Assembly (NCBI GenBank): GCA_947089915.1
Contig: CAMUMB010000055.1
Span: 1 to 7,935 of the forward strand
DNA from: an uncultured Bacillales bacterium
Lineage (GTDB): Bacteria > Bacillota_I > Bacilli_A > RF39 > UBA660
DNA: 7,935 nucleotides
Reading direction: 5' to 3'
The position numbers and the translations under genes are program-made. The notes under the pieces were generated by a model. That model did not search any database and was not told the DNA's origin. It was given only the letters and a program-made list of their open reading frames with translations. Positions 1 to 7,935 of this stretch are shown here, piece after piece (the first letter of the stretch is position 1; each line of letters begins with the position of its first letter).

Positions 1-94
1 ATGTCATTTTCATATAAAAAGATTCAATCCCATAGAAAAAGTGATTGAACCCTATAAGTAAATATTTTTGGTTTTATTTTAGAAGAAAATAGGA

Positions 95-115
95 GTTACA
101 GATGAAATCTGTAAC
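95..115. other. Perfect 9-bp inverted repeat (GTTACAGAT-gaa-ATCTGTAAC) in the upstream intergenic region; function unknown
   Basis: Arms 95..103 and 107..115 are exact reverse complements with a 3-nt loop. No T-run follows directly (the T-run starts near 137), so a terminator role is not supported. Confidence 0.4.
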
Positions 116-207
116 AAAACCATCGCAGAAATGTGATTTTTTTTAATAAATATTGTTTTTGTATATTTTGTTAAAATTTATTCTTTAAATTATAACAATC
201 TAGGTAT

Positions 208-236
208 TTTAAAAAAATAATAACTTGTGCTATAAT
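208..236 (+). promoter_or_regulatory. Candidate sigma70-type promoter with extended -10, upstream of the avd-like gene
   Basis: TGcTATAAT at 228..236 is an extended -10 with a perfect TATAAT at 231..236. A weak -35-like TTTAAA sits at 208..213 with a 17-bp spacer. AGGAG (244..248) and the start codon follow. AT-rich background makes chance matches likely. Confidence 0.4.
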
Positions 237-258
237 ACCAACTAGGAGTTGTGATGTA

Positions 259-843
259 GTGTTGCAGGTAAATAGAAATGGTAGTTTAAAAATACCAAAG
301 CAAATAGAACAATATGAAACAAGTGCAAATAGTATAGAGGATGCAGTTGCAATCAAAAAAGCACTTACGAGTGTAAATGAACAAAAAATAAATATAAATA
401 CTTTAAGAGAAAAATTAGAAATAGAAGATCAGGAATTAGAAAGAATTTCTAAGATTCCCTTTAATGCAAATGATTTAATGGTAATTACGGTTGTAAAGAA
501 GTTAGGTGCTTATGTAATTGCAGTAACAGAAAAATCTCCTAAAAAGTTTAGAGGCGTATTTGTTAATAGAATGCAGAATTATTGTTTAGATACATTAGAA
601 TTATTATTAGAAGCAAATTTGATTCGAATGGACTCGGAAACAAATAAAATAAATCGAGAACAATTTCAAAAAGAGGCTATTGTGAAGCTAAAATTACTGG
701 GATATGTTGCGATGATTGCAGAGAGTTCTAATTGTATTTTGAAAAAACAGTATAAACAAATATCCATTCAATTAGCGGAAGCCATTAATTTAATTGCTGC
801 TTGGAAAAAGAGTGATGATGAAAGATGGCGCAGGAAGAGTTAG
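259..843 (+). CDS. avd: Avd-like accessory variability determinant (four-helix-bundle protein) with an N-terminal extension of about 73 aa
   Basis: The C-terminal ~120 aa (DLMVITVVKKLGAYVIAVTEKSPKKFRGVFVNRMQNYCLDTLELLLEANL...KLKLLGYVAMIAE...QLAEAINLIAAWKKS) resemble DGR Avd / four-helix-bundle proteins. The gene lies directly upstream of the TR and RT. AGGAG at 244..248 favours GTG 259 or TTG 262 as the start. The only internal in-frame ATG (478) has no SD. Stop is TAG 841..843. Confidence 0.75.
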   Translation: MLQVNRNGSLKIPKQIEQYETSANSIEDAVAIKKALTSVNEQKININTLREKLEIEDQELERISKIPFNANDLMVITVVKKLGAYVIAVTEKSPKKFRGVFVNRMQNYCLDTLELLLEANLIRMDSETNKINREQFQKEAIVKLKLLGYVAMIAESSNCILKKQYKQISIQLAEAINLIAAWKKSDDERWRRKS

Positions 844-922
844 GATTTTAGATTGAAAAATCTTTAATTAAGGAGAAAATTTACATTTGTGCATTTTTGT
901 TTTCGGCCCCTTTGTTGTTCTT

Positions 923-996
923 CGCGCGCGTCGTTAATAAAAACGGTAATAAGAACTAAAATAATGTTAGAAAACGGGATGTAGGAGCCCGTCCAG
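923..996 (+). repeat. DGR template repeat (TR)
   Basis: Noncoding and located between avd and the RT. It aligns ungapped with 2522..2595 (offset 1599), 63/74 identical. At 9 of the 11 mismatches this copy carries A. It contains 28 adenines and is flanked by GC-rich blocks (CGCGCGCGTCG and CGGGATGTAGGAGCCCGTCCAG) in an otherwise AT-rich locus. Confidence 0.9.
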
Positions 997-1164
997 ATTC
1001 ACTTTTGAAGAGATTTTAAAAAAATCTAGAAAACAGATGAGAGAAGTTTATTTTTGGTAAAATAAGCCTGTATTGTAAGGTGAAGGAATTTTCTTCTTTT
1101 CTAATCGCTAAAAGAGAAGTCTTAGATGCGATGGAAAAATAATAAACACTCACACAAACAATGA
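997..1164 (+). ncRNA. Putative spacer (Sp) segment of the DGR RNA between the TR and the RT start; boundaries uncertain
   Basis: The position matches the Sp region of the characterised Bordetella phage BPP-1 DGR RNA (TR followed by a spacer before brt). It contains three AT-rich hairpins: 1011..1027 (AGATTTT-aaa-AAAATCT), 1048..1065 (TTATTTT-tggt-AAAATAA) and 1093..1119 (CTTCTTTT / AAAAgaGAAG with a 2-nt bulge). No credible ORF. Confidence 0.4.
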
Positions 1165-1218
1165 ATGAATACATTCCTTGGGCGTTATATGGGGTGTTTC
1201 TTTTTTGAGGGAGTATTT

Positions 1219-2250
1219 ATGAATTTAGAAGAAATTTTTACATTTGAAAACTTATATGAAGCATATCAAAATTGTCGAAAATCCAAACAACACAAAGGAG
1301 AAGTGATTCGGTTTGAGACCAATTTGGCTGTTCATATACATGAGTTAATGCAAGCTATTTATAAACGTAAATATCAATTGGGTTCTTATAAAATATTTTA
1401 TATTTATGAACCTAAAGAGCGTTTAATAGAAGCTTTGCCGTTTAAAGACAGAGTGGTGATTCGCTGCTTTTGTGATGTTTGTCTAAAACCAAAAATAGAA
1501 AAGAAATTGATCTATGATAATTGTGCTTGTCGAAAAGGGAAAGGTACTACGTTTGCAATCAATCGGCTACATCAATTTTTACGAAAAATTTATAATAAAG
1601 TAAAAAGTAATCAATTTTATTTTTTAAAATGTGATATTCATAAATACTTTCCAAGCATTCATCATGATATTTTAATCACCTTACTTGAAAAAATTGAGTT
1701 TTCGGAAGATGAAATGTGGATGATTCAAAAATTAATCCAGGAGCAACCTAATGCGGCGAATAGAGGTTTGCCTCTTGGAAATCAATCGAGTCAGTGGTTT
1801 GCCCTTTATTATTTAAATGTAGTAGACCGATATATCAAAGAAGTGCTGCAAGTAAAGTATTATGTAAGGTATATGGATGATATGATTTTAATTCATGAGG
1901 ACAAAAAGTTTTTAAAGTATTGCAAGAATGAGATAGAAAGAATATGCCATAATGAGTTAAAATTAGAACTCAATCAAAAAACACAAATTGGTATGGTCAA
2001 AAATGGAATTGATTTTTTAGGATATCGACATATTGTTACGCCTAGTGGAAAATTGATTATGAAATTGCGATATTCTTCGAAACAGAGAATGAGAAAACAT
2101 TTAAAAACAATGAATAAATTATATCAAAAGGGAATTGTTGATGAAACTTATGTATTGATTCGAAAAAATGCTTTTTACAATCATATAAAAAATACAAATG
2201 AATATTTTCTTAGACAGACAATTTTATTGGAAGATATAAATAAACTGTAA
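1219..2250 (+). CDS. DGR-type reverse transcriptase
   Basis: YMDD catalytic motif at 1870..1881 (VRYMDDMILIH). DGR-signature LGNQSSQ ([I/L]GxxxSQ) at 1774..1794. Other RT motifs include PKERLIEALPFKDRVVIRCF, ACRKGKGT, LKCDIHKYFPSIHH and GIDFLGY. The start was moved to ATG 1219 because it is preceded by GAGGGAG (1207..1213) and the typical N-terminus MNLEEIFTFENLYEAY begins there. The track's 1165 start adds an implausible leader. Stop is TAA 2248..2250. Confidence 0.9.
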   Translation: MNLEEIFTFENLYEAYQNCRKSKQHKGEVIRFETNLAVHIHELMQAIYKRKYQLGSYKIFYIYEPKERLIEALPFKDRVVIRCFCDVCLKPKIEKKLIYDNCACRKGKGTTFAINRLHQFLRKIYNKVKSNQFYFLKCDIHKYFPSIHHDILITLLEKIEFSEDEMWMIQKLIQEQPNAANRGLPLGNQSSQWFALYYLNVVDRYIKEVLQVKYYVRYMDDMILIHEDKKFLKYCKNEIERICHNELKLELNQKTQIGMVKNGIDFLGYRHIVTPSGKLIMKLRYSSKQRMRKHLKTMNKLYQKGIVDETYVLIRKNAFYNHIKNTNEYFLRQTILLEDINKL

Positions 2251-2312
2251 AAAAATGACAAAAGGTGTCTACAATGAGCAAAATTATGTTATGATATAGG
2301 TGGTGATTTACT

Positions 2313-2558
2313 ATGTTAGATTTTACTTTTTTGGAAACAGAACAAATATTTGGTGATAAACAATTAGATATATTTAAATTGTATGGAACCAAATGTGCAA
2401 TTTCGGATTTTGCTATTTTATTAGGTGGTTATGTAGCAAATAGTACATATACAAGTGAAGGAAGTACATTAAAAGACCGTACTGGTTGGTGGTGGACAAA
2501 GACTTCAGATGGAGATAATGACGCGCGCGTCGTTAATGGAGACGGGTCTAATTACTAG
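2313..2558 (+). CDS. N-terminal fragment (81 aa) of the DGR target, ending at a TAG inside the VR
   Basis: ATG 2313 is preceded by AGGTGGTGA (2298..2306). The product ...GWWWTKTSDGDNDARVVNGDGSNY* carries the front part of a WWxx[ST]...G[VA]RPAL-type module. The stop TAG 2556..2558 falls in the middle of the variable positions. Confidence 0.7.
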   Translation: MLDFTFLETEQIFGDKQLDIFKLYGTKCAISDFAILLGGYVANSTYTSEGSTLKDRTGWWWTKTSDGDNDARVVNGDGSNY

Positions 2559-2595
2559 AATGATGTTAGAAAGCGGGATGTAGGAGCCCGTCCAG
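2522..2595 (+). repeat. DGR variable repeat (VR) within the target gene
   Basis: Cognate of TR 923..996. Substitutions occur at TR-A positions 939, 940, 942, 948, 949, 954, 959, 963 and 974 (VR 2538, 2539, 2541, 2547, 2548, 2553, 2558, 2562, 2573). Two non-A differences lie at VR 2546 and 2552. The first 13 bp and last 22 bp are invariant. Confidence 0.9.
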
Positions 2596-2601
2596 CTTTA
2601 C
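2574..2601 (+). promoter_or_regulatory. IMH-like element (initiation of mutagenic homing) at the 3' end of the VR
   Basis: A 22-bp GC-rich block, CGGGATGTAGGAGCCCGTCCAG, is identical in TR (975..996) and VR (2574..2595) even though it contains 4 adenines. The next 6 nt diverge (TR ATTCAC vs VR CTTTAC), as expected for an IMH*/IMH pair that sets directionality. Confidence 0.5.
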
Positions 2602-2636
2602 CATACTCTTCTATCTCTTCCATCTCCTCGAACGAA

Positions 2637-4397
2637 GTGAGAGGGGCATGTGGACTTCCTGAAGTTGACTTTGGAGAATTACCACAAACTGCTATGGAAG
2701 ATAATTTTGCAAGACAATTGGAAAATACATACCAAATTGGTATGAAAGAAATAGGAAACAAATATACAACAGATTCTGTTGCTTATGATGATTATGACAC
2801 GCCTTTTCAGGCACGCGAATTTACTGAGTACGAGTATATGCAAGAAAGATATATTCGCTTTTTGGGTGATAAAAATGGAGCAGGAAAGGTGCTTTCAACA
2901 GGAGCGAAGGTAGAAATTGGGAAACCATATTGGGTGAAAGTAGAAAAAGTTCGTTGGTTCGTAGATAAAAAGAATGATATTGTGCTTCCTAAAATCATTT
3001 TGTTTGCAGGTGTGCAATTCAATCAGATTAGAAATTATATGGGAGATTTTGCAAATACAGATATCAAAAAATACATGGATAATTGTTTTGCAAAAGAAAT
3101 ACAGACAAATAAAGTGGATTACCTGATAACTGATACCGATACCAGTATTCGTAAAACAAGACTTCAAAATCTCAATCCAGATACCACAATCGCATCTGAA
3201 AGAAGAAAAATGACATATACCGAAATGATTCAAAATTGGATTGAAGCAGGGGAATCAGTACTATTAAGAGGACCATCTGGAATTGGAAAGACAGAACGTA
3301 TTCGTAAATTATATCCAAATTTAATCTATCTCAAATTGACCAACAATATGCTTCCTGAGAAGGTAGTTGGTTCTAGTAACTTTCAAACGGGGCAAAATAT
3401 TCCACCTAATTTTGCCAAGCAGGCGATTTTAAATTGTGCGACGGAAGAAGAAAAGAAAATGGTTGCAAGTAATATTCAAAGCTTATATGACCTTGCTGAT
3501 ACCATATATGAAAGATCAAAGACAAGTAATGAAAAAATTGTAATATTATTAGATGAACTTTTGAATGTAAAACCAGTGGTACAATCACTTGTCTATACCC
3601 TCGTTTTGAATCGGATTGTAGAAACAGGAAGTGGTTTAAAGTTACCAGAAAATACCGTGATTGTGGCGACTGGAAATCCGCAAAAATATTCTAGTGTTGC
3701 AGAAGAATTAGCAGAACCACTAGAAAAGAGATTTGATCATATATTAGATATGGAACCACGTGTTTCAGAATGGATTTATGAATATGCAATTCCAAATCAG
3801 TTGCATCCTTCTGTGATTGGATATATTGTTTCAAAATATATGGAAAATCAAAGAAGAGAAGATATTCCTTCGATTGGATACTTTTATGAAGAACCAGAGG
3901 TAGGGGAAAGGGATAAAGATCGTAATGGTTGTCGTGGTAGAACCAATGACCCAAGAGGGTGGACATCCATTTCTCATACACTATGTGCATTTGAAAAAAA
4001 TTTAGTAGAAGGCAAATATGTGGGTAAAGATGTAGAACATTTATTGCAAATGTCTGTCGCAACCAAATTGCGTGAATCTTGGGCAAGAGAATTTTTGAAT
4101 TATTATAATATTCCAACACTTACCATAGAACAAGTTGTGAGTAAAACCTATACTCAGGCTGATTTACCAAGAAATACCAATGAGCGATATGCTTGTATGG
4201 TGGCATTGTTGTTAGCTGATGAGAACCAAGTGGGTACTTGTCGAGAATTTGTTCAGCAATATTGTGATCCTGAATATCGTGAATTATATGATTTACTATG
4301 GGTTGGAAATGATGAGATGCGGATGCTGAAAATGAGTGAATTACAACAATTAGAATTGCAAAAGAGGCAAATAGAGGGAGTTGGAAAAAGTAGATGA
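2637..4397 (+). CDS. MoxR/AAA_5-like AAA+ ATPase; downstream part of the DGR target frame, with doubtful independent initiation
   Basis: Walker A GPSGIGKT at 3270..3293. Walker B ILLDE with D-E at 3552..3557. Sensor-1-like VIVATGNP and an Arg in PLEKRFDHI. The frame is open from 2559. Stop TGA 4395..4397 overlaps the next start (ATGA). Confidence 0.8.
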   Translation: MRGACGLPEVDFGELPQTAMEDNFARQLENTYQIGMKEIGNKYTTDSVAYDDYDTPFQAREFTEYEYMQERYIRFLGDKNGAGKVLSTGAKVEIGKPYWVKVEKVRWFVDKKNDIVLPKIILFAGVQFNQIRNYMGDFANTDIKKYMDNCFAKEIQTNKVDYLITDTDTSIRKTRLQNLNPDTTIASERRKMTYTEMIQNWIEAGESVLLRGPSGIGKTERIRKLYPNLIYLKLTNNMLPEKVVGSSNFQTGQNIPPNFAKQAILNCATEEEKKMVASNIQSLYDLADTIYERSKTSNEKIVILLDELLNVKPVVQSLVYTLVLNRIVETGSGLKLPENTVIVATGNPQKYSSVAEELAEPLEKRFDHILDMEPRVSEWIYEYAIPNQLHPSVIGYIVSKYMENQRREDIPSIGYFYEEPEVGERDKDRNGCRGRTNDPRGWTSISHTLCAFEKNLVEGKYVGKDVEHLLQMSVATKLRESWAREFLNYYNIPTLTIEQVVSKTYTQADLPRNTNERYACMVALLLADENQVGTCREFVQQYCDPEYRELYDLLWVGNDEMRMLKMSELQQLELQKRQIEGVGKSR

Positions 4398-4774
4398 ATC
4401 AAGAATTAGTAGAGTTACAACGAGGGAGTTCGACTGGTGTTATTATACTGGATTGTATGTATCAAGACTTAGGACAAACTGCATATATGGATGCTAGTAT
4501 AGAAGATACCTATTTGTTTCGTTATGGAAATCCCATTTTCAAATCTAAATTGGAACAACTTTCTAGCAATGGAAAAACAACGTATTTTGTCATTCGCAGA
4601 ATAGATGCATTAATTACGGTACAACAAGAAAAATATATTGGACTCATCAAAGATAGAGAATTTATGGGGTATTCAATTCCTTCCAATGTCATTATTGTTT
4701 TTACAGTAGCATCAAAAGAATCTTTAAAAAATATTGCACCCAATCTTTATCAATTGTGTGTTGTAGCATTTTAG
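4394..4774 (+). CDS. Hypothetical 126-aa protein, translationally coupled between the ATPase and the VWA-peptidase genes
   Basis: The ATG at 4394 overlaps the ATPase stop (ATGA). Its TAG stop (4772..4774) overlaps the AGGAG RBS of the next gene. No recognisable motif and no TM segment. Confidence 0.65.
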   Translation: MNQELVELQRGSSTGVIILDCMYQDLGQTAYMDASIEDTYLFRYGNPIFKSKLEQLSSNGKTTYFVIRRIDALITVQQEKYIGLIKDREFMGYSIPSNVIIVFTVASKESLKNIAPNLYQLCVVAF

Positions 4775-4785
4775 GAGAGTTGTCT

Positions 4786-6021
4786 ATGGATTTAATACAT
4801 GAAGCAAAAAATATTCTAATGATTCGCTATCCTCGTTTTGCAAGCTTACTTGCAGCTACACCAATTGAATATAATTCTCATTTAAAGTATCATACAGGGG
4901 CAACGGATGGAAAAAAGATTTTGATTGACCCTGATTATTTTGCAAGCTTAGAACTTGAGGGACGTTTATTTCTCTTGGCGCATGAGCTTATGCATATGCA
5001 ATTTCTCCATATGTATCGTTTAAAGAAGAATGGAAAAAAGAAAGATTTAGATACATGGAACGAAGCTACCGATGCAATCATCAATGCCAATTTGGTAAGA
5101 GATGGATTTCAGATAGAAGAAGATTATTTTACTTATCCAGACGCGTTATCCTATACAGCGGAACAATTATATGAAAAATTATTAAATGAAGATGGGAAAC
5201 ATACGGAATCTTGGAAGGATGATCATAGTCTTTGGGAAAAAGCTTTTGAAAAAATGGAAAAAGGAGAAGATCAGGTTCAAAAACTAGATACAGAAATTGA
5301 TGAAAAACAAGAATTTAGAGAAAATAGAGAGGAACGCATTGCAAAAGCCAAAAAGGATTTGATGAAGAAAAAAGAACAAGTATTAAAGGAATGGGAAAAA
5401 AATAAGATTCAAAATGAATTAGGCACAGTAGGGGAAGAAAATAATGCGATTGATTGGCTACTTCTTTTAAGAAGAGAAGTCAATAAAGATGAGATTATTT
5501 GGAGTAATCGACGTTCCATTGCTGAAAATAATTATGCATATAGATTAGAGGAAGACGAGTTAGAAGAAGAAGCGGAAACAGAGGTTTTAATTGATGTTTC
5601 TGGGTCAGTTAGTTTAAATTTAGTAAAATTTTTTTTAAGGATGATCAAGCCGATATTACACCATTCCAAATTAAAAGTAGGGTGTTTCAATGAAAAATAT
5701 TATGAAATGGTAGAAATAAAATCAAATAATGATATTGATCATTTTGTGATTCCAAAAGAATCGCATAAGTATGCATGGACAGAAGACTGGGATTTGGCTG
5801 TTCGTTCTTTCACAAGAAAAAAAGAAATCAATAAAATTATATTTACCGATGGAATACCCGGTCCAGGAAATATGCCCAAAGAAGATTTAAAAAATGAAAA
5901 TGTAATTTGGATTGTTTACGGAAATCCAAATTTCAAACCATGTTGTGGAAAGGTAATTCAAGTGACAGAATCAGAGTTGTTGGGAATGATGTTATCAGAA
6001 GAAAAGGGAAAGATAAGATAA
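4786..6021 (+). CDS. DUF2201-type protein: N-terminal HExxH putative metallopeptidase domain plus C-terminal VWA-like domain
   Basis: ATG 4786 is preceded by AGGAG (4773..4777), so the track's 4756 start is rejected. HELMH lies at 4981..4995 within LLAHELMHMQFLH, followed by WNEATDAIINANL, as typical of the DUF2201_N peptidase-like domain. The MIDAS-like DVSGS lies at 5593..5607. A Lys/Glu-rich linker separates the two domains. Confidence 0.8.
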   Translation: MDLIHEAKNILMIRYPRFASLLAATPIEYNSHLKYHTGATDGKKILIDPDYFASLELEGRLFLLAHELMHMQFLHMYRLKKNGKKKDLDTWNEATDAIINANLVRDGFQIEEDYFTYPDALSYTAEQLYEKLLNEDGKHTESWKDDHSLWEKAFEKMEKGEDQVQKLDTEIDEKQEFRENREERIAKAKKDLMKKKEQVLKEWEKNKIQNELGTVGEENNAIDWLLLLRREVNKDEIIWSNRRSIAENNYAYRLEEDELEEEAETEVLIDVSGSVSLNLVKFFLRMIKPILHHSKLKVGCFNEKYYEMVEIKSNNDIDHFVIPKESHKYAWTEDWDLAVRSFTRKKEINKIIFTDGIPGPGNMPKEDLKNENVIWIVYGNPNFKPCCGKVIQVTESELLGMMLSEEKGKIR

Positions 6022-6025
6022 GAAT

Positions 6026-6084
6026 AAGCTTCAAGAAATTATGATAATTTTAGAGAAAGATATTGAAGCTTTCTTTTTTATTTG
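6026..6084 (+). terminator. Rho-independent terminator ending the DGR-target operon
   Basis: Perfect 9-bp arms AAGCTTCAA (6026..6034) and TTGAAGCTT (6063..6071), followed by TCTTTTTTATTTG. The 28-nt loop is large but contains an inner AAATTA-tga-TAATTT hairpin. Confidence 0.6.
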
Positions 6085-6172
6085 ATATCATATATTTATG
6101 AGTTTGATGTATCAATATCAATTCGTAAAAAGGAATAAAAAGTGGTTGAATAATGAAAAGAGGGAGTGGACT

Positions 6173-6700
6173 ATGAACAATTATATCGATGAAAATACAC
6201 CATTTGGAATTCAAAATCAACATAATTATTCAACAATTATACCAACGGGAGAATGTATTACTTATTTAGTACAATATTGTGCGGATGAATATCAAAAATT
6301 CACTGCGCTTACAGATGAAGTAGAAAAAAACAAAGAACAACATGGTGAATACAATTACAGTTTTAAAAAAGGAGCGTCTCTTTTTGAAATTGCAATTAGA
6401 GGAAAACAGTATAGTAATATTGTTTGTGAAAATTTTCAGGAATTTGAAGATGCTATCCAAGAAAAAGGATTAAAAGACATTAGTAGTTTAGAAATCAAGA
6501 TGCATTTGAATTTTAAAAGAGATCGGGAAGAGGTAGGAACAGAACATCAAAATGAATTTGTCATTACCTTTAGACCTTATGAAATTTCTTTTTCAAGAAA
6601 ATCAAATTACAATGAAACAATGATGAATCAAATAGAAACCAATATTGATGATGTTTTAAGAAGATTCCCATCTATCAATAGCATTTTTTCAGCAAGGTAG
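6173..6700 (+). CDS. Hypothetical protein (175 aa)
   Basis: ATG 6173 is preceded by AAGAGGGAG (6158..6166). The track's 6098 start lacks an RBS and lies next to the terminator. No family recognised. Confidence 0.6.
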   Translation: MNNYIDENTPFGIQNQHNYSTIIPTGECITYLVQYCADEYQKFTALTDEVEKNKEQHGEYNYSFKKGASLFEIAIRGKQYSNIVCENFQEFEDAIQEKGLKDISSLEIKMHLNFKRDREEVGTEHQNEFVITFRPYEISFSRKSNYNETMMNQIETNIDDVLRRFPSINSIFSAR

Positions 6701-6706
6701 GGGTTT

Positions 6707-7012
6707 ATGGCAATTACCAAAGAATACAAAGATTATGTATTAGAAAAATTAGAGTGTTTGGACTTTATTACATACCGTCCTATGATGGGTGATTATCTAT
6801 TTTATTACCAAAATATTTATTTTGGTGGAATGTATGAAGAAGAACGATTTTTAATAAAAGAAACTTCTAGTAATCAAAAATACAATTTGAAAGAGGCGCT
6901 TCCTTATAAAGGGGCGAAATTGATGTATTGGGTAGAAGATTTAGAAGATATGGAACGGCTCAAAAATATGATTATAGATACTTGTAAGGATTTAAAGCCA
7001 AAGAAAAAATAG
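6707..7012 (+). CDS. TfoX N-terminal domain-like protein (101 aa)
   Basis: YRPMMGDYLFYYQNIYFGGMYEEERFLIKET resembles the TfoX_N core (MFGgyglY..g..fa.i.d..lylK). The RBS AAGGTAGGGG (6694..6703) overlaps the previous stop. Confidence 0.55.
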   Translation: MAITKEYKDYVLEKLECLDFITYRPMMGDYLFYYQNIYFGGMYEEERFLIKETSSNQKYNLKEALPYKGAKLMYWVEDLEDMERLKNMIIDTCKDLKPKKK

Positions 7013-7059: not shown

Positions 7060-7935
7060 ATGATTTTATTTGTCAGTGGTCGAACAGATATTGTAGCTTT
7101 TTATTCAAAGTGGTTTCTGAAACGATATCAGGAAGGCTTTGTAGACGTTAGGAATCCCTTTTATCCGAAACAAATTAGCCGTATTTATTTTGAGGATGTT
7201 GATGCAATTCTGTTTTGTACGAAAAATCCCATTCCAATATTAAACCATTTAAAATCAATTGATAAACCAATTCTTTTTCATGTAACATTAACACCTTATT
7301 TAAAGGAAATTGAACCCAATGTTCCTCCAAAGGGAAAAATAATAGAAGCGATTAAACAACTATCTTCTATTGTGGGAATTGAAAATTTATATATTCGTTA
7401 TGATCCTATTTTCCTAAGTGAACAATATAATATTTCTTATCATAAAAAAGCATTTGATCATATGTGCTCTTTATTAAATGGTTTTGTAAAGAACATTATT
7501 ATCTCTTTCATCGATGATTATCAAAATGTAAGAAAAAATAATTCAATTTTAAAAATAAGAAATTTTAAAGCAGAAGATTATCAAGAAATTGGTCTTTCTT
7601 TTTGTGAGAGTGCTCAGAAAAATGGAATGACAGTACAAACTTGTTTTGAGAAAAATAATTTAACACAATATGGATTTGTAAAAGGGGAGTGCTTGTCTAA
7701 AACCTGTGCTTATCAACTCACTGGTAAAACGTATAAAAAATGGAATGCCAGAAAATGCGGATGTGTAGAAATGGTCGATATTGGTGTTTATAATTCATGT
7801 AAACATTTTTGTAAGTATTGTTACGCTAACTATGATGAAAACCTAGTTATGTCTAATTTTAGTCAACATAATTCCAATAGTAGTTTATTGATTGGCGATT
7901 TAAAACAAGATGATGTTATTAAAAGAAGAAAATGA
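7060..7935 (+). CDS. DUF1848 domain protein
   Basis: Motifs include SGRTDIVAFYSKWF, VRNPF, ILFCTKNP, IRYDPI and the C-terminal Cys cluster CGCVEMVDIGVYNSCKHFCKYCYAN, all characteristic of DUF1848. RBS AAGGAG at 7046..7051. Stop TGA falls at the window end (7933..7935). Confidence 0.8.
   Translation: MILFVSGRTDIVAFYSKWFLKRYQEGFVDVRNPFYPKQISRIYFEDVDAILFCTKNPIPILNHLKSIDKPILFHVTLTPYLKEIEPNVPPKGKIIEAIKQLSSIVGIENLYIRYDPIFLSEQYNISYHKKAFDHMCSLLNGFVKNIIISFIDDYQNVRKNNSILKIRNFKAEDYQEIGLSFCESAQKNGMTVQTCFEKNNLTQYGFVKGECLSKTCAYQLTGKTYKKWNARKCGCVEMVDIGVYNSCKHFCKYCYANYDENLVMSNFSQHNSNSSLLIGDLKQDDVIKRRK

Follow-up and report, generated by a model that had tools for sequence, protein, structure and literature searches.

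A diversity-generating retroelement of gut Firmicutes with a stop codon in its template repeat

Components of the cassette

The window analysed here, 7,935 nt of contig CAMUMB010000055.1, contains a diversity-generating retroelement (DGR) in which an avd-like accessory gene, a non-coding template repeat (TR), a structured spacer and a reverse transcriptase (RT) gene are followed by a target gene carrying the variable repeat (VR). The named features are listed in Table 1 and all lie on the plus strand. Each of the defining tests that we ran identifies the cassette as a DGR, in agreement with a first-pass annotation of the same DNA: all four components are present in the order it proposed (avd, TR, RT, target with VR), and each passes independent tests. 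Its description of the DGR as complete holds for the components but not for the target reading frame, which is interrupted by a TAG inside the VR. Three findings go beyond that annotation, namely that the target is switched off by a stop codon templated in the TR, that the VR is located in the N-terminal part of a predicted cytoplasmic ATPase, and that in-frame stop codons are enriched in the TRs of a whole family of related loci.

Table 1. Coordinates of the features of the DGR cassette and its target operon in the window
Feature	Position	Strand	Remarks
Promoter-like site upstream of avd	208..236	+	TTTAAA-17-TG-TATAAT; 10/12 consensus matches, extended -10
avd-like accessory gene, 194 aa	259..843	+	~70-aa conserved N-terminal extension and ~115-aa Avd core
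TR, non-coding	923..996	+	28 adenines; in-frame TAA in the VR reading frame
TAA codon in TR	957..959	+	in register with target VR codon 82
Structured spacer RNA between TR and RT	997..1218	+	222 nt; predicted helices with covariation
DGR reverse transcriptase, 343 aa	1219..2250	+	RVT_1, E = 1.6e-18
Promoter-like site upstream of target gene	2268..2295	+	9/12 matches, with TG
Target gene, 694 codons in one frame	2313..4397	+	TAG at codon 82; ~270-aa N-terminal VR domain and AAA_5 ATPase
VR, target codons about 70-95	2522..2595	+	hypervariable column block of the homologue alignment
In-frame TAG inside VR (OFF allele)	2556..2558	+	TR TAA with one A>G
Conserved 126-aa protein	4394..4774	+	start overlaps the target stop codon
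DUF2201_N putative metallopeptidase with vWA-like C-terminal domain, 411 aa	4786..6021	+	DUF2201_N, E = 1.3e-21; phrog_1314, E = 1.4e-42

Adenine-specific differences between the repeats

The segments 923-996 and 2522-2595 align without gaps, with 63 of 74 positions identical and 11 mismatches, exactly the differences listed in the first-pass annotation. Nine of the mismatches replace a TR adenine (by G at 939, 940, 942, 959, 963 and 974, by T at 948 and 954, and by C at 949), and the remaining two are T947G and G953T. The claimed adenine enrichment was reproduced by a scripted test, in which 9 of 28 TR adenines were mismatched compared with 2 of 46 other bases (p = 0.0019 by one-sided Fisher's exact test). 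Positions with A in the VR copy show no mismatches with the TR. The same comparison for 27 TR/VR pairs pooled from related loci (described below) gives 336 mismatches at 762 TR adenines and 10 at 1382 other bases (p = 3e-160). The pair is the sole long repeat in the window; when the window was shuffled 40 times with dinucleotide composition preserved, the best ungapped direct match of 74 nt had a mean of 43.3 identical positions (standard deviation 1.0, maximum 46), compared with the observed 63.

The repeat homology ends at 922/2521 and 997/2596. The invariant 3' stretch of 22 nt (975-996) agrees with the earlier description; the invariant 5' stretch does not, as it measures 16 nt (923-938) and not 13 nt, which is the length of its initial A-free part. 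Throughout the family, TR and VR part abruptly after CCAG, and the identical 22-nt 3' end is never diversified. The TR, situated 80 nt past avd and 222 nt ahead of the RT gene, is non-coding, as originally proposed, with stops in all frames, and the VR lies within a gene.

Reverse transcriptase and accessory protein

The RT contains LGNQSSQ at 1774-1794 and YMDD at 1870-1881, which are the [I/L]GxxxSQ and YMDD motifs from which a DGR-type RT had been suggested. Its closest solved relative in a search of the PDB is 8ub7_A (E = 1.9e-36), a chain with 100% identity to the brt product of Bordetella phage BPP-1. In the same search, E-values are ~1e-8 for group II intron RTs and ~1e-6 for retron-type RTs, and the lead of the BPP-1 bRT amounts to ~24 orders of magnitude over the next PDB match and ~28 over group II RTs. 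The protein also matches the PHROG RT family phrog_1423 (E = 1e-106). The nearest phage RTs are those of nd12 (39% identity), Faecalibacterium phage FP_Brigit (37%) and Vibrio phage VP585 (36.5%), and Bordetella phages are also among the matching phage RT records. Group II, Drt3a, retron and UG models also turn up for this protein in NCBIfam and PADLOC, all far under the family cutoffs, and the RT groups with none of the retron, group II or Abi RTs.

The identification of the gene flanking the TR as avd-like is upheld by a match of its product to PHROG phrog_3206, "Avd protein of DGR" (E = 1.4e-15). It also aligns with the entire profiles of NCBIfam DivGenRetAVD (E = 1.2e-6) and Pfam bAvd (E = 4.7e-5), in both cases under the curated cutoff, and 10 of 11 Avd-like proteins of the family likewise match bAvd/DivGenRetAVD under the cutoffs. 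About 25 related loci keep the gene in its place ahead of the RT gene. Searches of the PDB with the single sequence and with an 11-member profile gave no bAvd match. The N-terminal extension of the protein (residues 1-70; window 259-480; MLQVSR..LKIPK...EDK.AVK) falls outside the 107-position Pfam bAvd profile.

The target gene is interrupted by a templated stop codon

In the list of open reading frames (ORFs) the target gene appears as two pieces in a common frame, an 81-aa ORF (2313-2558) and a 586-aa ORF (2637-4397), which upon read-through form one 694-codon protein with a single TAG, located within the VR. Translation of the TR in the VR frame gives ARVVNKNGNKN*NNVRKRDVGARP. The TR codons in this frame include, in addition to TAA, two AAA, one AAG and one AGA, and the TR is therefore stop-capable rather than restricted to AAY codons. 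The window TAG corresponds to the TR TAA with one A>G change, so that the target allele of this genome is predicted to be OFF and unable to yield the full-length protein.

When the read-through protein was used as a database query, more than 1400 relatives were retrieved. The best 120 of them are mostly intact proteins of ~700-740 aa that cover 98-100% of the query. In the homologue alignment the VR block, ARVV-x-G-x-V-x-R-x-GARPALPYSSI, is hypervariable between conserved flanks, and the residue at the stop position is mostly Y, W, S, C, F or L, all encoded by TNN codons. The VR occupies an N-terminal position (about residues 70-95 of 694) and not the usual C-terminal place.

We considered two ways in which the stop might be circumvented. 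An alternative genetic code was rejected, because TAG, TAA and TGA each terminate other ORFs of the window. Restart of translation past the stop was also rejected: the GTG at 2637 chosen by the gene caller is in frame without an evident ribosome-binding site, and the nearby ATG at 2647-2649 is out of frame.

Turnover of the variable repeat among related loci

Scanning one genome per species, we obtained 75 related loci (here designated by L numbers). Nearly all belong to genomes that were assembled from gut metagenomes (sheep, mouse, rabbit, chicken and human) and are labelled Bacilli, Tenericutes or Clostridia. Most of the 75 contain the module of ATPase, small protein and DUF2201 protein, and in about 25-30 of them avd and the RT gene lie directly upstream of this module. 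An ungapped, adenine-tolerant repeat search detected TR/VR pairs in 24 loci, with mismatches nearly all at TR adenines. An exact-pattern scan for the TR/VR flanks found nothing in viral contigs and one odd contig among metagenome contigs.

Locus L001, which shares 95.4% identity with the window along 6.6 kb, has no differences in the TR region (923-1008), compared with 11 differences in the VR, all within 2539-2573; relative to the TR, its VR has 10 mismatches, 10 of 10 at adenines. L076, a metagenome contig 97-99% identical to the window, has a third version of the VR and shares its TR with the window and L001. In L077 and L078, which come from two samples, the 592-aa downstream product is identical and the VRs differ (SFDGDSD*FIVGLR and SKDGLSL*DLVRIR). 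The VR is thus not invariant, and near-identical strains with the same TR differ in their VRs at TR-adenine positions. These comparisons support a DGR that is still active or was so until recently.

Some of the related loci have peculiarities of their own. In L076 (ERZ777305 NODE-2186) a junction at reverse-complement ~7457-7530 joins window positions 52-996 to 2574-6966, so that avd and the TR's 5' flank are followed directly by a mutated VR body and the target's 3' part, and the contig lacks both the RT and the N-terminus of the target; this junction represents either a deletion by recombination between TR and VR via their shared 13-16-nt 5' end or an assembly chimera at 3.9x coverage. The L076 VR has TGT (Cys) at the stop position. 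In L005 and L067 (both at 6190-6310) the VR has one additional nucleotide relative to its own TR at an A-rich run after a conserved GT(A/T) codon, and the target is frameshifted, which may be due to RT slippage on A-runs or to assembly error. Many Clostridia loci (L006, L009, L011, L012, L023, L024, L029, L035) have two or three tandem paralogous VR-ATPase genes, and in L006, L011 and L012 one TR templates different VRs in each target copy. Two identical target copies, VR included, are found in L007, L008 and L036 and may reflect recent duplication or an assembly artefact. The 962-aa homologue P0002 has two tandem N-terminal VR-type domains before the ATPase, the second with its own ARVV...GARPALPYSSI. 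L080 (IMG/VR UViG 3300006217_003178) is filed as viral, yet ABC-transporter genes lie on its flanks; the VR domain is retained in its 638-aa target, the C-terminal part has no AAA match by tblastn or Pfam, and its avd is seemingly split in two ORFs.

Stop codons in template repeats across the family

In-frame stop codons are present in 7 of 12 distinct TR lineages in the genome-scan set, at three codon positions (numbered along the ARVV repeat). TAA occurs at codon 6 in L004, L025, L040 and L056, at codon 12 in the window, L001, L005/L079, L077/L078 and L080, and at codon 17 in L031; TGA occurs at codon 12 in L019 and L074. The TRs of L002, L003, L073, L006, L009, L011, L012, L021 and L067 have no in-frame stop. 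As a baseline we applied the same repeat finder to 80 viral DGR loci with an RT alignment, which gave ~62 clear TR/VR pairs, and only one of these has an in-frame TR stop. The difference from 7 of 12 is significant with p = 3e-6 by Fisher's exact test. The single baseline case, L107 (IMG/VR, TR 4686-4801), has TAG in the context GGN*NNG where its relatives have TGG (Trp), and its own VR has TGG; TR stops thus exist, rarely, outside the gut-Firmicutes family.

On a neighbour-joining tree of the RTs, the stop-carrying TRs are placed on several deep branches, which indicates that the trait is persistent or recurrent and not a one-off lesion. The codon-12 TAA is common to sub-clades with RTs ~81% identical, the RTs of lineages that share a stop differ by 19-30%, and the codon-6 TAA is common to L025 and L056 and present in L004 and L040 as well. 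The TR stop is an enriched and long-lived trait of this DGR family. A literature search for TR-encoded stop codons found no description of them; the search was incomplete and its outcome is only absence of evidence.

The consequences are visible in the targets. Among ~55 homologous target copies all in-frame stops lie in the VR, at query codons 76, 82, 84 and 87 (in the window, L001, L005, L019, L031, L033, L037 and L056), and there are none in the remaining ~660 target codons. When only alleles that had not been chosen by their state were counted at the TR-stop codons, 6 of 12 alleles from stop-carrying TRs were stops (window, L001, L005, L019, L031, L056) and 6 of 12 were sense codons (L004 TGG, L025 TCG, L040 TGC, L074 TGT, L076 TGT, L080 TAC). 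None of 11 intact alleles from TRs without stops has a nonsense VR. Five of the sense alleles are two A substitutions away from TAA, which implies productive homing from stop-carrying TRs; the TAC of L080 is one change away.

To see what split would be expected we modelled misincorporation at rates per adenine from 0.31 (PMC12875486) to 0.5. A TAA codon remains a stop with a probability of 0.62 at the lower and 0.42 at the higher rate, and the chance of a wholly stop-free window VR is 0.29 to 0.42. Since the rate observed in the family is 0.44, the roughly equal division between stop and sense alleles, in these small numbers, looks near neutral.

Three loci that do not figure among these 12 alleles also have stops in the VR. 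In L043 (4802-4909), from a second subgroup with RT ~54% identical, a VR TAG derives from an AAA lysine codon of the TR and is not a templated stop. L037 (1-200) has three in-frame VR stops, at query codons 82, 84 and 87, and L033 (5990-6180) has one at codon 82; the TRs of both lie outside the DNA fetched.

Structured spacer and promoter-like sites

In an alignment of 16 loci with RTs only 51-80% identical, the spacer between TR and RT shows strong conservation. Its predicted structure contains a long-range helix, in which ATTCACTTT directly 3' of the TR pairs with AAGGTGAA ~85 nt downstream, followed by several hairpins. RNAalifold predicts 39 pairs from the 16-locus alignment, 21 of them with compensatory changes. 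A covariance model of the first 170 nt found full-length matches in 9 held-out loci of the family (E = 1e-26 to 2e-34) and no match in 79 viral DGR loci, and a scan of the window against Rfam at E ≤ 1 found nothing, the spacer matching no Rfam family. The spacer fits a lineage-specific DGR RNA scaffold, and together with its equivalents in 25 loci it is a candidate for a new RNA motif of this kind.

The promoter-like site at 208..236 could be the start of an avd-TR-RT transcript and that at 2268..2295 the promoter of the target gene. Both assignments are only suggestive, because such sites are, in total, no more numerous in the window than in shuffled sequences.

Target protein, operon and neighbourhood

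The ATPase part of the target (residues ~300 onward) matches AAA_5 (MoxR/dynein-related; E = 4.6e-6, over the Pfam cutoff) and contains a Walker A motif, GPSGIGKT, at 3270-3293 and a Walker B motif, LLDEL, at 3546-3560. None of the operon proteins has a transmembrane-like segment and the target has no signal-like hydrophobic stretch; it is predicted to be a cytoplasmic ATPase. The N-terminal ~270 residues of the window target have no Pfam match. Among 20 relatives, 9 have a match of the VR segment (residues 56-95) to the C-terminal end of DUF6273 (best E = 5.7e-6), over only ~40 residues and below threshold for the lineage of the window, and 8 have one to Fib_succ_major. A Foldseek search with the model of a full-length homologue gave weak AAA+ matches only, none at E ≤ 0.001.

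The 126-aa protein, whose gene follows that of the ATPase in the majority of the 75 related loci, has no match in Pfam, NCBIfam, PHROG or PADLOC. The DUF2201 protein, also kept in most related loci, contains HELMH at 4981-4995 and a MIDAS-like DVSGS at 5593-5607; its match to the vWA-like PF09967 is weak in the window (E = 0.015) and clear in the L080 homologue (E = 6.6e-14). Searches of the PDB by phmmer with the ATPase part and the DUF2201 protein gave no matches, and a literature search on the function of DUF2201 or its association with RTs found nothing relevant.

After the operon the window encodes a 175-aa protein without a family match (6173-6700) and a 101-aa protein weakly similar to TfoX_N (6707-7012; E = 0.0026); both genes follow the operon only in the window, L001, L005, L077 and L078. 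At 7060-7935, ~5 kb past the RT, lies a gene for a DUF1848 protein (Pfam E = 9e-86; PADLOC "RTasDUF1848", defence-RT-associated, E = 4.7e-29). It is probably a neighbour and not a component of the cassette, as it adjoins the cassette only in the three closest loci (closest relatives L001 and L005). Upstream of the cassette in L001 are genes for a rhomboid protease, a DUF3048 protein and an HD protein, which places the cassette in a chromosomal and not a phage context.

Interpretation and alternatives

We interpret the window as a chromosomal DGR cassette (avd, TR, structured spacer and RT) followed by a target operon, composed of the VR-domain/AAA+ ATPase, the 126-aa protein and the DUF2201/vWA-like protein, that is recoded by retrohoming and is OFF in this genome. 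We put the probability of this interpretation at roughly 0.88. The components, the adenine bias, the turnover of the VR between strains, the templated stop and the recurrence across the family are direct observations; the steps of retrohoming and the role of the target we infer. By analogy with BPP-1, RT-Avd would bind the avd-TR-spacer-RT transcript through the spacer, which may also prime synthesis of complementary DNA (cDNA), and the TR would be reverse-transcribed with random misincorporation opposite adenines. The cDNA would then replace the VR, with the identical 22-nt 3' end as the homing anchor. Homing would recode 11 codons including the TAA codon, for ~3e14 possible DNA variants and ~2e12 protein variants, and because the TR carries an in-frame TAA each event would have a chance of roughly 40-60% of leaving a stop codon in the target. 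The target itself could be a hypervariable intracellular sensor of ligands or invaders, coupled to the ATPase-vWA-peptidase module.

Several observations weigh against this interpretation or parts of it. Non-adenine mismatches make up 2 of 11 in the window VR, compared with 0.7% of non-A bases in the relatives, and the Pfam and NCBIfam scores of the Avd protein are below the cutoffs. Folding of the DNA up to 65 nt downstream of the VR revealed no significant GC hairpin of the BPP-1 kind (z = +1.1 and +0.6). Foldseek searches of PDB and BFVD with the confident AlphaFold model of the N-terminal domain of homologue P0010 (pLDDT 87, pTM 0.89) gave nothing significant, including among the solved variable proteins with a C-type-lectin fold, although the domain may still have this usual fold, and PADLOC gives only a weak DolB match for the target module. 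In addition, all sequences are metagenome assemblies, in which the VR consensus can mix alleles, and retrohoming was not directly observed.

It is possible, if on our estimate rather doubtful, that the TR stop is a maintained design feature, by which each homing event redraws the binding specificity of the sensor and at the same time makes a near-even toss between ON and OFF. Silent cells would then coexist in a population with cells that each express a different receptor. The DGR would drive an immune-like repertoire, subject to phase variation, for a cytoplasmic system that is costly, and OFF would be one of its normal states instead of a sign of decay.

Decay is the next alternative: a nonsense mutation would have reached the TR by drift, homing would have killed the target, and the cassette would be on its way to being lost, with no role for the stop. 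The interruption of the target in the window and its closest relatives (L001, L005, L077, L078), the +1 frameshifts in the VRs of L005 and L067 and the two non-adenine mismatches in the window VR speak for such a scenario. We nevertheless consider it improbable, as the window has an intact RT, avd and downstream genes and a target that is otherwise intact too, no homologous target copy has an in-frame stop outside the VR, and the TR is identical between strains that are 4.6% apart elsewhere. The sharing of TR stops by lineages with RTs 19-30% apart, at three codon positions and on several branches of the RT tree, and the sense alleles that signify productive homing also count against decay.

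More improbable still is that the stop is an artefact of assembly or consensus calling in a hypervariable region and that the real cells have sense codons. The metagenomic origin of all the sequences and the structure of L076, which shows that assemblies can be odd near TR and VR, give some reason to consider this scenario; an artefact would not be expected, however, to fall exactly at the codon where the TR has TAA, nor to recur at the same codon in at least 6 independent assemblies or samples, and gene callers in public data split the gene in the same manner (81 aa and 586-634 aa). Next to no credence is due to the idea that the repeat arose by chance duplication beside the RT of some other retroelement (group II intron, retron, Abi or DRT defence RT). 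In its favour one could cite the NCBIfam models for group II (E = 1.5e-25), Drt3a and retron RTs that are matched below threshold, the many PADLOC RT models and the DUF1848 gene 5 kb downstream; against it, those matches are far under the cutoffs, the GxxxSQ motif is present, BPP-1 bRT leads all other solved relatives, DUF1848 adjoins the cassette in three loci only, and ordinary duplication could not produce the adenine biases of the window and the family.

About half of the alleles observed from stop-carrying TRs are null. Should selection maintain the TR stop, DGRs would act as stochastic ON/OFF switches in addition to diversifying their targets, and cassettes that annotation pipelines drop as having a pseudogenised target may then be functional. 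The target is a testable candidate for a diversified intracellular sensor in unicellular gut bacteria, and its operon could provide the first functional handle on DUF2201.

Comparison with known systems

The family departs from two habits of DGRs. A published design principle holds that TR codon choice (AAY) and RT bias avoid nonsense codons (PMC12875486; bioRxiv 2024.11.15.621889), and Roux et al. (PMC8144416) found C-terminal VRs and C-Lec folds to be near-universal in DGRs. The survey of Wu et al. contains three N-terminal VRs, and the tentaclin paper describes N-terminal VRs as "rare among phage DGR systems" (PMC10743442).

The DGR of phage BPP-1 (avd-TR-brt, with target mtd) resembles the window cassette in having an Avd-like gene, a non-coding TR beside the RT, A-specific changes and an undiversified 3' end of the repeat, and its brt, the closest solved relative of the window RT, shares the GxxxSQ and YMDD motifs. 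It differs in being phage-borne with the target upstream, whereas the window cassette is chromosomal with the target downstream, and in having the VR at the C-terminus of a tail fibre with a C-type-lectin fold, whereas the window VR is N-terminal in a predicted cytoplasmic ATPase. A GC hairpin follows the VR of BPP-1 and none was found past that of the window; the window TR in turn holds a stop codon, and its spacer RNA model matches no other DGRs.

DUF6273/Fib_succ_major-type domains carry VRs in Legionella-type targets and in "tentaclin" targets of gut phages (PMC5758913, PMC10743442, PMC11792537). The tentaclin-type phage targets (nd4/nd12; PMC10743442) and the targets of Faecalibacterium prophages (PMC11792537) resemble the window's family in the partial DUF6273 match of the VR segment in some members and in their occurrence in gut Firmicutes, and the RT of phage nd12 is among the nearest phage RTs. 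Tentaclins, however, serve phages as receptor-binding proteins, and their variable domain is followed by Ig-like or Fn3 domains, in contrast to the AAA_5 fusion and the non-phage operon of the window.

Fusions of CLec and AAA domains are reported for candidate phyla radiation bacteria (CPR; PMC10907252). They too combine a variable domain and an AAA+ ATPase in one polypeptide, but they belong to other phyla and another RT clade.

For multicellular bacteria, a role as antigen sensors has been proposed for DGR targets with links to MoxR ATPases and vWA proteins (PMC10907252). In these MoxR-vWA ternary conflict systems (Thiohalocapsa PB-PSB1, cyanobacteria; PMC10907252, PMC7159879) a separate protein, of vWA or STAND type, holds the VR in a CLec domain at its C-terminus, whereas in the window the VR domain is fused to the N-terminus of the ATPase itself. 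VMAP is a defining component there, and no VMAP, TIR, caspase or trypsin effector domains were found in the window ORFs with Pfam, NCBIfam or PADLOC; the partner in the window is a protein with DUF2201_N and DUF2201, and its hosts are unicellular gut Firmicutes. The two arrangements have in common a DGR associated with a MoxR-like AAA+ ATPase and a peptidase-like domain, and putatively a partner of vWA type, as well as a target predicted to be cytoplasmic; the idea of a hypervariable intracellular sensor applies to both.

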